This document shows positions 40,059-44,317 of a stretch of 64,000 bases of DNA, piece by piece. The notes under the pieces were generated by a model. The model had not been told where the DNA came from, made no database searches, and worked only from the letters and a program-made list of their open reading frames with translations. This DNA is from a phage: the sequence record PZ296772.1. One strand, 5' to 3'. A program made the position numbers and the translations under genes. Position 1 is the first letter of the stretch. Every line of letters begins with the position of its first letter.

Positions 40059-41231
40059 ATGTCTGATTTAAAATCTCGTCTGATTAAAGCTTCTACTTCT
40101 AAAATGACTGCAGACTTGACTAAGTCTAAGCTGTTTAATAATCGTGATGAAGTCCCTACTCGTATTCCGATGTTGAATATTGCACTAGGTGGTGCTCTGA
40201 ATGCAGGATTGCAATCAGGCTTGACTATTTTTGCTGCTCCTTCTAAACACTTTAAAACGTTGTTTGGGCTGACTATGGTTGCAGCGTATATGAAGAAATA
40301 TAAAGATGCAATCTGTTTGTTTTATGACTCGGAATTCGGTGCTTCAGAATCTTATTTTCGTTCAATGGGTGTCGATTTAGACCGTGTAGTTCATACACCA
40401 ATTCAGTCTGTCGAACAACTTAAAGTCGATATGACTAATCAGCTTGACGCTATTGAACGCGGTGATAAAGTTATTATCTTTATCGATTCAATCGGTAATA
40501 CTGCATCTAAGAAAGAAACCGAAGATGCGTTGAACGAGAAAGTTGTAGGTGATATGTCTCGTGCTAAGGCACTTAAATCTCTTTTCCGTATTGTGACCCC
40601 GTATCTGACTATTAAAGATATTCCGTGTGTTGCAATTAACCATACCGCAATGGAAATTGGCGGATTGTATCCTAAAGAGATTATGGGCGGTGGTACAGGT
40701 ATTCTTTATTCTGCCAACACAGTATTTTTTATCTCTAAACGTCAGGTTAAAGAAGGTACAGAATTGACCGGTTATGACTTCACGTTGAAAGCAGAAAAAT
40801 CTCGCACCGTTAAAGAAAAATCTACTTTCCCAATCACGGTTAATTTTGATGGTGGTATCGACCCATTCAGTGGCTTGCTAGAAATGGCAACTGAAATCGG
40901 TTTTGTGGTTAAGCCTAAAGCCGGGTGGTATGCTCGTGAATTCCTTGACGAAGAAACAGGTGAAATGATTCGTGAAGAAAAATCATGGCGTGCTAAAGCT
41001 ACTGATTGTGTAGAATTCTGGGGACCTTTGTTTAAACACAAACCTTTCCGAGATGCAATTGAAACCAAATATAAACTAGGTGCTATCTCTTCTATTAAAG
41101 AAGTTGATGACGCTGTTAACGACCTTATTAATTGCAAAGCAACAACTAAGGTTCCAGTTAAAACTTCTGATGCTCCATCTGCAGCAGATATAGAAAACGA
41201 CCTTGACGAAATGGAAGATTTCGATGAATAA
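40059..41231 (+). CDS. uvsX: RecA-like recombinase UvsX
   Basis: 390 aa; MSDLKSRLIKASTSK, Walker A, FDGGIDPFSGLLEMA, WYAREFLDEETGEMIREEKSWRAK; near-identical to recalled T4 UvsX. Confidence 0.9.
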   Translation: MSDLKSRLIKASTSKMTADLTKSKLFNNRDEVPTRIPMLNIALGGALNAGLQSGLTIFAAPSKHFKTLFGLTMVAAYMKKYKDAICLFYDSEFGASESYFRSMGVDLDRVVHTPIQSVEQLKVDMTNQLDAIERGDKVIIFIDSIGNTASKKETEDALNEKVVGDMSRAKALKSLFRIVTPYLTIKDIPCVAINHTAMEIGGLYPKEIMGGGTGILYSANTVFFISKRQVKEGTELTGYDFTLKAEKSRTVKEKSTFPITVNFDGGIDPFSGLLEMATEIGFVVKPKAGWYAREFLDEETGEMIREEKSWRAKATDCVEFWGPLFKHKPFRDAIETKYKLGAISSIKEVDDAVNDLINCKATTKVPVKTSDAPSAADIENDLDEMEDFDE

Positions 41232-41565
41232 TCTCGATGATTTAAATCTAGAAATCGTTGATGAATCCCCTTCTTTGGAAGGGGAGGACATTCGCAAAGA
41301 ACGAGTGTTTAATGAATCTCTTAAAATTATCCGTTCAGCAATGGAAAATGTCATTCAAGAGATTCTGATTACACTTGAAGACGGTTCACATCATATAGTC
41401 TATATTACAAAACTAGACTGGGTTGATGGTAAAATCGTAATGGACTTTGCAGTTCTTGACCAGGACAGAAAAGCAGAACTTGCACCACATGTTGAAAAAT
41501 GTGTTACAATGCAAGTACAACAAGCTTTTAATGAACGAACCAAGAAAAAATTTAAATTCTTTTAA
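41224..41565 (+). CDS. 40: head vertex assembly chaperone gp40 (by position)
   Basis: Start moved to ATG overlapping uvsX stop; 113 aa between uvsX and 41. Confidence 0.5.
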   Translation: MNNLDDLNLEIVDESPSLEGEDIRKERVFNESLKIIRSAMENVIQEILITLEDGSHHIVYITKLDWVDGKIVMDFAVLDQDRKAELAPHVEKCVTMQVQQAFNERTKKKFKFF

Positions 41566-41574
41566 GGAGTTATC

Positions 41575-43017
41575 GTGGTAGAAATTATTTTGTCTCATCT
41601 CGTATATGACCAGGCTTATTTTTCTAAGGTCTGGCCTTATATGGATTCTGAGTATTTTGAGCGTGGACCGGCAAAAAATGTCTTTAAAATTATAAAGAGC
41701 CACGTTAACGAATATAATGCAATGCCATCCATCAATGCATTAAAGGTGGCTTTAGATAACAGTTCTTTAACTGAAGCCGAATATAAAGGAACTTCAGACC
41801 TAATTGAAAAATTGGCTGATACTCCTGAAGACCACGAATGGTTGGTTAAAGAAACTGAGAAATATGTCCAGCAAAAAGCGATGTATAATGCTACATCCAA
41901 AATCATTGAGATTCAGTCTAATGCTGAACTACCTCCAGAACAACGTAACAAGAAAATGCCTGACGTAGGAGCTATTCCTGATATTATGCGTCAAGCACTT
42001 TCAATTTCGTTCGATAGTTATGTTGGACATGACTGGATGGAAGACTACGAAGCACGCTGGCTTTCTTATCTGAACAAAGCACGTAAGGTCCCGTTCAAAT
42101 TAAACATTCTGAATAAAATCACTAAAGGTGGTGCTGAAACCGGTACACTAAACGTTTTAATGGCTGGTGTTAACGTTGGTAAATCTTTAGGCCTTTGTTC
42201 ACTTGCTGCAGATTATCTTCAAACAGGTCATAATGTTCTTTATATTTCCATGGAAATGGCTGAAGAAGTTTGTGCTAAGCGTATAGATGCAAACATGCTT
42301 GACGTATCGCTCGATGATATCGATGATGGTAATGTATCTTATGCTGAATATAAAGCCAAGATGGAAAAATGGCGTTCAAAATCCACATTAGGACGTTTAG
42401 TAGTTAAACAGTATCCTACCGGTGGAGCTAATGCTAATACATTTCGTGCATTGCTTAATGAGTTAAAACTTAAGAAGAACTTTGTGCCATCCGTAATCAT
42501 GGTTGATTACTTAGGTATTTGTGGGTCTTGTCGTATCAGAGTTTACACTGAAAATAGCTACACATTAGTTAAAGCTATCGCAGAAGAACTTCGTGCATTA
42601 GCAGTAGAATCTGAAACAGTTTTATGGACTGCAGCTCAAGTAGGACGTGCAGCATGGGATGCTTCGGATATGAACATGAGCGATATTGCAGAATCAGCAG
42701 GTTTACCAGCAACGGCAGATTTCATGTTGGCCGTAATTGAAACCGAAGAACTTGCACAAGCTGAACAACAACTTATCAAACAAATCAAATCACGATATGG
42801 TGATAAGAATAAATGGAATAAATTCCTGATGGGTGTACGTAAAGGCAACCAAAAATGGATTGAGATTGAGCAAGAAGGCATGAACACACCTAACACAGTA
42901 AATGAAAACGCAGGTGCTCAGATGCGTCAGGCAGAGGTGAATCGTACGGAACGCGTAGGTAAAGCCAAAGCAACACGGGCTGACCTAGATAGCTTAGCCA
43001 ATGAGTTAAAATTTTAA
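41575..43017 (+). CDS. 41: replicative DnaB-like helicase gp41
   Basis: GTG start after AAGGAG; Walker A AGVNVGKS; near-identical to recalled T4 gp41. Confidence 0.9.
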   Translation: MVEIILSHLVYDQAYFSKVWPYMDSEYFERGPAKNVFKIIKSHVNEYNAMPSINALKVALDNSSLTEAEYKGTSDLIEKLADTPEDHEWLVKETEKYVQQKAMYNATSKIIEIQSNAELPPEQRNKKMPDVGAIPDIMRQALSISFDSYVGHDWMEDYEARWLSYLNKARKVPFKLNILNKITKGGAETGTLNVLMAGVNVGKSLGLCSLAADYLQTGHNVLYISMEMAEEVCAKRIDANMLDVSLDDIDDGNVSYAEYKAKMEKWRSKSTLGRLVVKQYPTGGANANTFRALLNELKLKKNFVPSVIMVDYLGICGSCRIRVYTENSYTLVKAIAEELRALAVESETVLWTAAQVGRAAWDASDMNMSDIAESAGLPATADFMLAVIETEELAQAEQQLIKQIKSRYGDKNKWNKFLMGVRKGNQKWIEIEQEGMNTPNTVNENAGAQMRQAEVNRTERVGKAKATRADLDSLANELKF

Positions 43018-43024
43018 TAAAAAA

Positions 43025-43043
43025 GGAGACTTCGGTCTCCTTT
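43025..43043 (+). terminator. terminator-like hairpin
   Basis: ggagac-TTCG-gtctcc followed by ttt. Confidence 0.5.
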
Positions 43044-43047
43044 CGGG

Positions 43048-43077
43048 GTTTACATCTTCCTCTAGGCATGATATGAT
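43048..43077 (+). promoter_or_regulatory. early promoter-like
   Basis: GTTTAC, 18 nt, TATGAT. Confidence 0.45.
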
Positions 43078-43106
43078 GAACTTACACCAACCAAGAGGAA
43101 AACATT

Positions 43107-43481
43107 ATGAATATGTCTCAAGCAATTTTTACTGCAATCACCGAAAACAAAACTGTTGAAGTAGTTTCTCCGCTGGCAACCTACGTTATTCTTGCTCCTA
43201 AAACTATTGTATCTCGTATGGAAAACACGGGCAAACGTATCGTACAAATAGTTGGAGCTGGAAATCAAAAACTTGATTATCTACGAACCATCAAAGCTTA
43301 TGAACATTTCCAACTCGAAAAAGGTTCTCCTATCCAGGTAGAACTCGTAAATGGTGATATCGTTCGAGCAATGTTCCATCATTTCTATGCATTGAATGAC
43401 CCATCTAAAGCGGTTCGTTTAATTGCATACGACGCAAACCAAAACGAAATCAACGCAGATATATCTAAATTACATTTTTAA
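43107..43481 (+). CDS. hypothetical protein
   Basis: 124 aa, RBS AAGAGGAAAA. Confidence 0.45.
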   Translation: MNMSQAIFTAITENKTVEVVSPLATYVILAPKTIVSRMENTGKRIVQIVGAGNQKLDYLRTIKAYEHFQLEKGSPIQVELVNGDIVRAMFHHFYALNDPSKAVRLIAYDANQNEINADISKLHF

Positions 43482-43482
43482 G

Positions 43483-43532
43483 TTTACTTCTCCAGTAGTT
43501 GTGTTATTATAGACCCTATCAACTACTGGAGA
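43483..43532 (+). promoter_or_regulatory. early promoter-like cassette inside inverted repeat
   Basis: GTTTAC, 17 nt, TATTAT; perfect 12-bp inverted repeat ctccagtagttg/caactactggag includes the RBS. Confidence 0.5.
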
Positions 43533-43537
43533 ACAAA

Positions 43538-43855
43538 ATGAAAACCATCGATTGTAAAGCAGAATTTAAGATTTTTTATCACGGTTCAAGTAGTTCAGCT
43601 AACATCAAAAACATGCTTTGTCCTCCTGAAGAAACAGGAGTTCTGTCTGAAACAGGACGTAAGAAAAACTTGGATCGTGTATTCTTTACTGAAGATATCG
43701 GTTTAGCAAAGATTTATGCAGGACGAGCAGCACGCTCTTATGGAGGTGAACCACGTCTCTATCGAGTAATTTCTCCGGTAGATGTAGTTCAAATGAATGA
43801 TACTAAAGGCGCTACAGTTTATCACGCTGAATGGGCATTTTGCGAGGAAATATGA
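43538..43855 (+). CDS. hypothetical protein with possible minimal ADP-ribosyltransferase-like (Arr-like) motifs
   Basis: Start moved to internal ATG; FYHGSSS, VFFTEDIGLAKIYAG and RLYRVISP loosely resemble recalled Arr-type H-Y-E transferases. Confidence 0.4.
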   Translation: MKTIDCKAEFKIFYHGSSSSANIKNMLCPPEETGVLSETGRKKNLDRVFFTEDIGLAKIYAGRAARSYGGEPRLYRVISPVDVVQMNDTKGATVYHAEWAFCEEI

Positions 43856-44043
43856 GCAAATTAACTAAAGTTACTTTTATTGGCTGGTTTAAAAGCGGTG
43901 AGATGTTCACTAAAGATATCATGTTATCAGGCGACCGTGAAGAAATCGAGTGGGTTGCGGTACAACTTGCTGAAGTGAACAACGCATTAGTTAAAGCATT
44001 TGTTAATGACGAGAAAGTTTTTGAAGCTGATTTCAGAGGATAA
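43852..44043 (+). CDS. dmd: Dmd (discriminator of mRNA degradation, antitoxin-like)
   Basis: Start moved to ATG overlapping upstream stop; 63 aa; FIGWFKSGEMFTKDIM and AEVNNALVKAFVNDEKVFEADFRG match recalled T4 Dmd. Confidence 0.65.
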   Translation: MSKLTKVTFIGWFKSGEMFTKDIMLSGDREEIEWVAVQLAEVNNALVKAFVNDEKVFEADFRG

Positions 44044-44044
44044 T

Positions 44045-44257
44045 ATGTATTCAACTGTGTTTAAACCATCAACATACGAATTTGCATCAACTACACAATG
44101 GAAAGCTCTTATTCTGGAAGGATGGGAACTAATGATGGACTGTGAAGCATCTGAAAAGTTTCCACACGGCAAAGTGGACTTCGTTAAATTTGCTGTACGT
44201 CCGACTAAACGACAGATTCGTCAAGAAAAACGCAAATTTCGCAAAAGTTTAAAATAA
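44045..44257 (+). CDS. small basic protein with VRPTKRQ tail
   Basis: Start at ATG after AGAGGA; C-terminal FAVRPTKRQIRQEKRKFRK paralogous to 14613..14783. Confidence 0.4.
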   Translation: MYSTVFKPSTYEFASTTQWKALILEGWELMMDCEASEKFPHGKVDFVKFAVRPTKRQIRQEKRKFRKSLK

Positions 44258-44259
44258 CT

Positions 44260-44289
44260 GTTTACAAGCACCACATACTGTGTTACTAT
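44260..44289 (+). promoter_or_regulatory. early promoter-like
   Basis: GTTTAC, 18 nt, TACTAT. Confidence 0.45.
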
Positions 44290-44317
44290 CTTTCTATCAA
44301 CTACAGAGGAAATTGAA

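Follow-up and report, generated by a model that had tools for sequence, protein, structure and literature searches.

Rifampin ADP-ribosyltransferase, Arr, is recognized by an HGT motif, Tyr49, and the catalytic Asp84 within DPN[VL], together with a loop that joins strands 5 and 6 and binds rifampin ([LV]TK[KR]P), and with helix alpha-2 at the C-terminus (M126, L130, L133; M[RK][DE]xL), which builds the main hydrophobic pocket (PMC6092378). A phage-encoded ADP-ribosyltransferase (ART) located next to Dmd in T4-like phages of Escherichia, Shigella, and Salmonella was described by Iyer, Burroughs, Anantharaman, and Aravind (2022, PMC9503650), who read the pair as a type II toxin–antitoxin (TA) system. 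The same authors placed p0068-like ARTs with the most frequent H-Y-[EDQ] ARTs of viruses, treated the genuine Arr-family genes, which occur in actinophages, apart from them, and raised small-molecule targets for phage Arr-family proteins (PMC9503650). Here, we analyze a gene of this kind, the ART gene at positions 43538-43855 of a 64,000-nucleotide stretch of phage DNA (sequence record PZ296772.1; the whole stretch is hereafter called the window), which encodes a protein of 105 amino acids (aa) directly upstream of dmd.

The p0068-like family is very probably the same as the one studied here; the two were matched by verbal description only, and that description fits exactly. The identity of the ART is, in other words, already in the literature as a computational prediction, which the present work confirms and cannot claim as a discovery. 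No experimental study of the family was found in the literature, and since the gene is absent from T4, it has never been studied genetically. A few GenBank and RefSeq records name homologues "ADP-ribosyl transferase" or "rifampin ADP-ribosyl transferase."

In what follows, we distinguish between the ART fold and Arr ancestry of the 105-aa protein, of which we are highly confident, and its role in infection, about which our confidence is lower.

Relationship to Arr and the predicted fold

The link to Arr becomes visible at the level of the family. An exhaustive profile search collected 220 relatives of the ART, many of them modules of ~95 residues within large multidomain proteins, and 72 of the 124 relatives that were scanned match the Pfam family Arr-ms (PF12120) at E up to 0.01, the best of them at 1.8e-9. 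Several exceed the 25-bit gathering score of Arr-ms, only over profile positions 1-67 of 99; the 105-aa protein itself does not reach this threshold. A profile built from 120 relatives scores 21.8 bits against Arr-ms (E 0.0013 for a PDB-sized search), and its profile-profile alignment (hhalign) with an Arr-family alignment reaches a probability of 96.8% and an E of 2.9e-10, with residues 11-84 set against Arr-ms 15-82. A narrower profile of 53 sequences returned noise only when run against the PDB, and hhalign of this profile with a single Arr sequence gave the expected alignment at a probability of only 6.8%.

Four blocks carry the alignment: F-Y-H15-G-S pairs with Y-L-H19-G-T of Arr-ms, E38-x-G-R41 with E40-x-G-R43, V-F49-F-T51 with I-Y49-I-T51, and R-L-Y-R-V-I-S-P with R-I-F-I-V-E-P. 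A preliminary description of the window, made from the letters and the open reading frames (ORFs), had tentatively proposed an Arr-like transferase of the H-Y-E class on the strength of three blocks occurring in the Arr order. These blocks are where it placed them (FYHGSSS at residues 13-19, VFFTEDIGLAKIYAG at 48-62, and RLYRVISP at 73-80), and both the order (His19 in the first, the Tyr49 position at VFFT/IYIT in the second, and the R-I-F-I-V-E-P strand in the third) and the class call are supported by the profiles.

The structure was predicted with AlphaFold from the 53-sequence alignment, at a mean predicted local distance difference test (pLDDT) of 89.1 and a predicted template modeling score (pTM) of 0.80. 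The model is a single domain with a core of ~93-95 residues, and consists of a strand at 13-18, a long loop, a strand at 48-51, a helix at 54-68, and strands at 72-81, 84-87, 94-97, and 99-104, which together form the split beta-sheet of the ART fold. Foldseek, which the preliminary description had named as a check on its call, returned such a fold, with Arr-ms (2HW2) as the top PDB match (E 4e-3, prob 1.00, TMq 0.60), followed by a second Arr entry and then by Tpt1 structures. Among viral predicted structures, the best match after two orthologues is a 94-aa protein named "Rifampin ADP-ribosyl transferase" in UniProt (37% identity, E 4e-9).

Residue conservation was counted over 120 diverse family sequences. 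Invariant or nearly so are H15 and G16 (120/120 each), E38 (119/120), R41 (117/120), F49 (118/120, the remaining 2 being Tyr), T51 (117/120), and Y60. E38, in the loop between strands 1 and 2, is the sole acidic residue that is invariant across the family, and His15, Glu38, and Arg41 together look like an active site. Toward the C-terminus, the N87 position holds N, S, or Q in 98/120 sequences, the D88 position is variable (Asn in HX01, Lys in phiR1-RT), and E103 is conserved in the T4-like subgroup only.

Of the H-Y-E triad implied by the preliminary description, the His therefore stands, and the other two members are less clear-cut. H15, the putative ligand of nicotinamide adenine dinucleotide (NAD+), lies in a Y-H-G-[ST] motif on strand 1 and aligns with His19 of Arr, and the HGT of Arr has its counterpart in HGS. 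At the Tyr position of the clade, on strand 2/3, the ART has F49, an aromatic residue without the hydroxyl, while the following helix bears the invariant Y60. No equivalent of Asp84 was identified at the catalytic-acid position on strand 5: the profile alignment to Arr ends at residue 84, just short of Arr D83/D84, and the stretch in question reads V-V-Q-M-N-D-T-K-G with no DPN motif. The rifampin loop [LV]TK[KR]P is missing as well, the corresponding loop being ~8 residues shorter, and there is no equivalent of helix alpha-2 because the protein stops at residue 105.

Profile comparison thus relates the N-terminal two-thirds of the protein, the predicted NAD+-binding half (His15, the E38-x-G-R41-K-K-N loop, F49/T51, and the helix with Y60/R63), to Arr as a homologous region. 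The putative acceptor half differs from that of Arr and is specific to each subgroup. An Arr-like NAD half joined to a different acceptor half argues for a sister family of Arr and against a rifamycin-modifying enzyme; we therefore place the ART as a predicted sister group of Arr within the H-Y-[E/D/Q] clade, and use "Arr-like" for fold and ancestry, without rifampin modification.

Gene call, conservation, and expression signals

The 105-aa ORF is a genuine gene. It runs from the ATG at 43538 to the TGA at 43853-43855, its product reading MKTIDCKAEFKIFYHGSSS...AFCEEI, and is preceded by a GGAG Shine–Dalgarno sequence at 43528-43531, 6 nt 5' of the ATG. A longer reading from TTG 43499 (118 aa) was dropped: the homologues share the same Met start, beginning at MKT, which makes the upstream start unneeded, and the Shine–Dalgarno sequence suits the ATG. 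The ORF belongs to phrog_2110 (5e-60), for which PHROG annotates no function, and has 148 homologous protein clusters in a large protein collection.

The gene is under strong purifying selection. The ratio of nonsynonymous to synonymous divergence (dN/dS) is ~0.12 against Yersinia phage phiR1-RT (dN 0.119, dS 1.02) and ~0.14 against HX01 (0.008/0.060). Against RB43 and the Aeromonas phages, synonymous substitutions have reached saturation, and the similarity is therefore old and maintained and does not reflect recent transfer. Across T4-like genera, conservation of the ART exceeds that of the replicative helicase gp41. Measured against the window, identity is 89.5% for the ART of JS98 versus 67.9% for gp41 of JS10, 71.6% versus 58.8% in Acinetobacter phage Apostate, and 67.6% for the ART of Aeromonas phage 65 versus 44.7% for gp41, the latter taken from the similar-sized avDM6.

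Two records should be read with the possibility of frameshifts in mind. Bas47 (AlbertHofmann, MZ501047), a phage of the BASEL collection that is otherwise 99.9% identical here, has a run of five T (extract L016, 12572-12577) where the window has six at 43572-43577 (ART codons 12-14). As a result, the frame is lost 5' of the YHG motif; all that the record annotates is an 80-aa ORF from the internal Met26, and dmd is intact. This is either a sequencing error in the homopolymer or a natural knockout, and the latter would make the ART dispensable on E. coli K-12. In the RB43 reference (NC_007023.1; extract L017, ~300-310), a 1-nt insertion (GAAAGC to GAAAGGC) frameshifts the homologue after ~codon 24; at the same site, the homologue of RB43-GVA (HE858210.2; extract L002, ~2570-2575) is intact. 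The RB43 annotation mentions similarity to RB69ORF040c, an older name of the family.

Over positions 43000-44300, the window matches Escherichia phage PTK without a difference (100% identity) and many Mosigvirus records at 98-99.9% identity, and the source genome is of the Mosigvirus (T4-like) type. In this genome, the ART gene lies between the helicase gene 41 side and dmd (Table 1), and the Pfam match of the next gene agrees with the preliminary description, which had placed the ART directly upstream of dmd.

Table 1. Features of the window around the ART gene
Feature	Position	Strand	Remarks
uvsX	40059-41231	+	
gene 40	41203-41565	+	
helicase gene 41	41575-43017	+	
124-aa ORF, phrog_10668, function not assigned	43107-43481	+	no Pfam match
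sigma-70 / T4-early-type promoter-like site, (G)TTTACT, 16-nt spacer, TG-TATTAT	43483-43510	+	consensus 9/12, extended -10 TG
perfect 14-bp hairpin, arms 43488-43501 and 43520-43533	43488-43533	+	-10 element in loop, GGAG in 3' arm
ART gene, 105-aa minimal Arr-like ADP-ribosyltransferase-fold protein, phrog_2110	43538-43855	+	
codons H15-G16-S17, HG[ST] motif on strand 1, putative NAD-binding His	43580-43588	+	aligns with Arr-ms His19-Gly20-Thr21
codons E38-T51, E-x-G-R-K-K-N-L loop, then V-F-F-T on strand 2	43649-43690	+	aligns with Arr-ms E40-x-G42-R43 ... I48-Y49-I50-T51
dmd, 63 aa, phrog_2102	43852-44043	+	Pfam Dmd 2.4e-20
61.4-like DUF7279 ORF	44045-44257	+	

Early-type sites of the form GTTTAC...TAnnAT precede three consecutive cassettes (43049-43077, 43483-43510, and 44261-44289), and the middle one, upstream of the ART, coincides with the hairpin. 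The hairpin folds at -21.2 kcal/mol (z = -4.4; 0/200 shuffles equally stable). HX01 retains it, with an A-U pair turned into G-U, and phiR1-RT has a shorter ATCTCC/GGAGAT form. Transcripts reading through from gene 41 or from the 124-aa ORF would be expected to sequester the ART ribosome-binding site, and those begun at the internal promoter would be translatable because the 5' arm of the hairpin is missing from them. A comparable device is known at T4 genes e, soc, 49, and I-TevI; unlike these, the ART hairpin uses an early-type promoter.

The ATG of dmd overlaps the stop codon of the ART (ATGA), and dmd has its own GAGG Shine–Dalgarno sequence. A consensus scan gave no promoter-like site between the two genes; dmd is therefore probably on the same early transcript, and the ART and dmd are probably co-transcribed early. 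A terminator-like site inside the coding sequence (43623-43640) was dismissed, as the 1 match compares with 1.0 expected by chance.

Relative to T4, the 124-aa ORF and the ART form an insertion between gene 41 and dmd, with the ORF behind the first of the three early-type sites. phiR1-RT does not have this ORF between gene 41 and the ART, and we treat it as genomic context without claiming a functional link. Directly after the stop codon of gene 41, at 43020-43050 of the window, a GGAGAC-TTCG-GTCTCC hairpin followed by TTT resembles a terminator or an RNA-stability element; its T-run was too short for the simple terminator scan to pick it up. In the corresponding region of HX01 (NC_018855.1; extract L001, 3508-4149), RefSeq names a 70-aa 61.4-like DUF7279 ORF "DNA polymerase" and a 122-aa ORF that starts with a lipoprotein-like signal (MKKLIALAMVFGLTGC) "iduronate sulfatase." Both product names look like transfer errors.

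Distribution of the ART and of Dmd

Homologues of the ART occur in 610 phage records, 216 of them from Escherichia phages; other hosts include Klebsiella (116), Acinetobacter (68), Aeromonas (62), Enterobacter (29), and Vibrio (14), and more than half of the 610 come from phages of other genera than those with Dmd. Dmd is detectable by tblastn in 799 records, almost all of Escherichia, Shigella, Yersinia, or Salmonella phages, a count to be read in the knowledge that Dmd is short and fast-diverging and that distant copies may escape tblastn. Among Escherichia phages, 597 records have dmd and 216 the ART, so that at least ~380 must carry dmd with no ART beside it.

The same picture emerges from individual genomes. 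T4 has gene 41, a 58-bp gap, and then dmd, with neither the 124-aa ORF nor the ART, and in Yersinia phage phiR1-RT, an ART of 85% identity occupies the same site after gene 41, with spackle directly behind it. In RB43, Klebsiella phage Matisse, Acinetobacter phage Konradin, Aeromonas phage 65, Aes508, and a Vibrio phage, the ART lies in other early regions, and no Dmd signature was found in the ORFs downstream of it. Adjacency of the ART and dmd was seen in Mosigvirus and JS98-type phages only (in pEC-M719-6WT.2, H53 and H100 are contiguous). The stable co-occurrence and adjacency across genomes that one expects of a TA pair are not observed; the TA reading is weakened, and for Mosigvirus it may still hold.

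A different neighbor recurs elsewhere. Directly upstream of the ART in RB43, Matisse, and Aes508 lies a homologous protein of 250-306 aa with no assigned function (phrog_7439/7204; 24-41% identity; extracts L002 1544-2464, L003 1593-2462, and L007 1682-2440), which may be a conserved partner of the ART outside Mosigvirus, and Srd is encoded a few genes downstream in the same three phages. The other neighbors in other genera are PHROGs without an assigned function.

A contig scan of bacterial genomes returned mostly phage contigs binned as bacteria, plus two homologues from bacteria of the Candidate Phyla Radiation (CPR). These are on the Candidatus Kaiserbacteria chromosome OY969413 (L013, 3902-4348) and on Patescibacteria JAGWJP010000001 (L014, 3923-4354), encode 143-148 aa at 48-49% identity, and carry a C-terminal helix as well as ~45 additional residues at the N-terminus; one adjoins an insertion sequence (IS)-type transposase. 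The neighbors of the two CPR homologues are uninformative, and one distant relative sits on a 546-bp contig without context.

Possible roles and comparison with known transferases

Outside the single-domain phage proteins, the ART module is found at the C-terminal ends of, or inside, proteins of 200-3,900 residues. One relative (P0159) combines it with a lambda-type portal domain and a 2H/Acb1-like phosphoesterase, three others (P0131, P0139, and P0160) carry it beside ART-PolyVal, and further contexts include DUF7178 and a combination of GNAT and Toprim (P0177). In the three ART-PolyVal proteins, the two modules are within ~20-100 residues of each other, so that two different ART modules stand in tandem, and in P0160 a NUDIX domain follows. 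"Polyvalent" proteins are thought to be delivered into the host by phages and plasmids (PMC5512222), and the resemblance of the module-bearing proteins to them suggests an effector that may act against the cell at the very start of infection, alongside other domains that process NAD, ADP-ribose, or nucleotides.

On balance, and with slightly more belief than doubt, we read the ART as an active NAD+-dependent ADP-ribosyltransferase that is made early and acts on a conserved host, nucleic-acid, or small-molecule acceptor in takeover or counter-defense. Right after infection, the host RNA polymerase would start at the early-type promoter within the hairpin and produce an ART–dmd mRNA with a free ribosome-binding site, which read-through transcripts would hide; if only promoter-proximal transcripts are translated, synthesis of the ART would be a short early pulse. 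The protein would then bind NAD+ and pass the ADP-ribose on to an acceptor. This acceptor would be held by the family-specific C-terminal sheet, through H96, W99, and E103 in the T4-like subgroup. Among the nearest relatives of solved structure, Arr modifies a hydroxyl on a small molecule, Tpt1/KptA acts on phosphates of RNA, and AcrIF11 acts on a defense protein, which makes a non-canonical acceptor plausible, and the polyvalent-type contexts favor a host-takeover or counter-defense role, with Dmd as a neighbor and no dedicated antitoxin.

A bolder version, which we rate as quite unlikely, would make this the smallest self-sufficient ADP-ribosyltransferase known, with a core of ~93 residues and the catalytic acid moved to E38 or dispensed with. 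Its acceptor would be something other than a protein, for instance an end or base of RNA or DNA, or an immune signal of the NAD-derived or cyclic-nucleotide kind, and the ART would serve as a counter-defense widely shared among the non-T4 Straboviridae. Such a shared role, if true, would explain why the ART is more conserved than the replicative helicase.

Several points weigh against an early, active enzyme and should be kept in mind. The ART sequence alone has no match in Pfam (even at E up to 10), NCBIfam, PADLOC, or the PDB sequences. The canonical triad is incomplete, with Tyr replaced by an invariant Phe and no conserved acid equivalent to Arr Asp84, and the ART could therefore be a weak enzyme or a binder only. 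The promoter call is a consensus match, and the hairpin comes from RNA folding. Finally, if the frameshifts in Bas47 and in the RB43 reference are real, the ART is dispensable on laboratory hosts.

The published alternative (PMC9503650) has the ART as a toxin and the downstream Dmd as its dedicated antitoxin, beside the inhibition of RnlA/LsoA by Dmd (Iyer et al. 2022). The gene order, with a toxin-like gene ahead of an antitoxin-like one that overlaps it by 4 nt (ATGA) and probably shares its transcript, agrees with it, as do the adjacency in Mosigvirus and JS98-type phages and the position of the module at the C-terminal end of multidomain proteins, where many toxin modules are found. ATGA overlaps are, however, common in T4-like genomes, and co-occurrence fails both ways (610 records with the ART vs 799 with Dmd, the ART being mostly without a detectable Dmd): T4 has dmd and no ART, phiR1-RT has the ART followed by spackle, and RB43, Matisse, Konradin, Aeromonas phage 65, and Aes508 lack a Dmd signature downstream. 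Since Bas47 retains dmd beside a frameshifted ART, and a strictly lytic phage has no obvious need to shield its host from its own early protein, we consider a dedicated TA pair unlikely. The absence of a conserved Glu or Asp at the Arr D84 position, the change of Tyr to Phe, the very small size, and the confinement of the most conserved residues to the NAD-binding half would all suit a non-catalytic ART-fold shell, acting as a sponge for NAD+ or an NAD-derived immune signal or docking onto a host protein; phage sponges for nucleotide signals are established (Tad1/Tad2, Acb2). The invariant His15, Glu38, and Arg41 nevertheless suggest an active site beyond a mere pocket, PARP-family ARTs without the catalytic Glu (PARP10, H-Y-I) are still active, and most relatives still score as Arr-ms members, so that a shell is, in our judgment, improbable.

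The activities of two relatives by fold were rejected as readings, and we give both very little credence. An RNA 2'-phosphotransferase of the Tpt1/KptA kind, repairing RNA with phage RNA ligase and kinase against host anticodon nucleases, would agree with the position of the ART gene five genes upstream of RNA ligase 2 in Slopekvirus and with the one fusion to a 2H phosphoesterase domain. The Tpt1 fold match is restricted to the NAD-binding C-lobe (75 residues), however, and the 105-aa protein has no N-terminal RNA-binding lobe, the part of Tpt1 in which most of the Arg-His-Arg-Arg catalytic tetrad is found; sequence profiles connect the ART to Arr and none to Tpt1, which makes this role highly improbable. 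Just as improbable is a true Arr-type small-molecule transferase acting on rifamycin-like antibiotics, and so guarding the host RNA polymerase, or on another diffusible compound. Arr is the closest solved structure by Foldseek, a sequence link leads to Pfam Arr-ms, and small-molecule targets were raised by Iyer et al. for phage Arr-family proteins, but all the Arr rifampin-binding determinants are missing (the loop, DPN/Asp84, and helix alpha-2), and the same authors assign the T4-like gene to a family other than Arr.

If the ART is the active early transferase that we favor, it matters for several reasons. More than 600 sequenced phages, with hosts in Escherichia, Klebsiella, Acinetobacter, Aeromonas, and Vibrio, carry the gene, and many of these phages are candidates for therapy. 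Being unusually small and unusually conserved, it would define a minimal ART scaffold, and as the transferases closest to it act on small molecules or RNA and not on proteins, knowing its acceptor could bring to light a new weak point of the host or a counter-defense chemistry not seen before.

Among described systems, the p0068-like family of Iyer et al. (2022) agrees with the ART in being a predicted H-Y-[EDQ]-clade transferase directly upstream of Dmd in T4-like phages, whereas the distributions reported here do not support the obligate ART–Dmd pairing of their reading. With Arr (2HW2 Arr-ms, 9IBA Arr-2, PF12120), the ART shares the fold, HG[ST] on strand 1, the E-x-G-R loop, the [IV]-[YF]-[IF]-T strand and the helix that follows it, and the R-[IL]-[FY]-x-V-x-P strand, and like Arr it is a very small single-domain protein. 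It differs in having 105 aa versus ~140 aa and in being phage-encoded behind an early-type promoter and no antibiotic-resistance gene. Tpt1/KptA, unlike the ART, has a two-lobe architecture with an N-terminal RNA lobe. The anti-CRISPR mono-ADP-ribosyltransferase AcrIF11 (6KYF) has no detectable sequence relationship to the ART, and its target, Cas8f of the type I-F Cascade, has no known counterpart here. Closest in setting are Alt, ModA, and ModB of T4, which are likewise early or injected ARTs of the same phage group and reprogram host proteins; Bas47 has two ModA-type genes ~6-7 kb downstream of the ART. These are R-S-E-clade enzymes of 200-680 aa without sequence relation to the ART, and they make T4-like phages the classic model of host takeover by ADP-ribosylation; the ART would be a fourth such transferase, from another clade.

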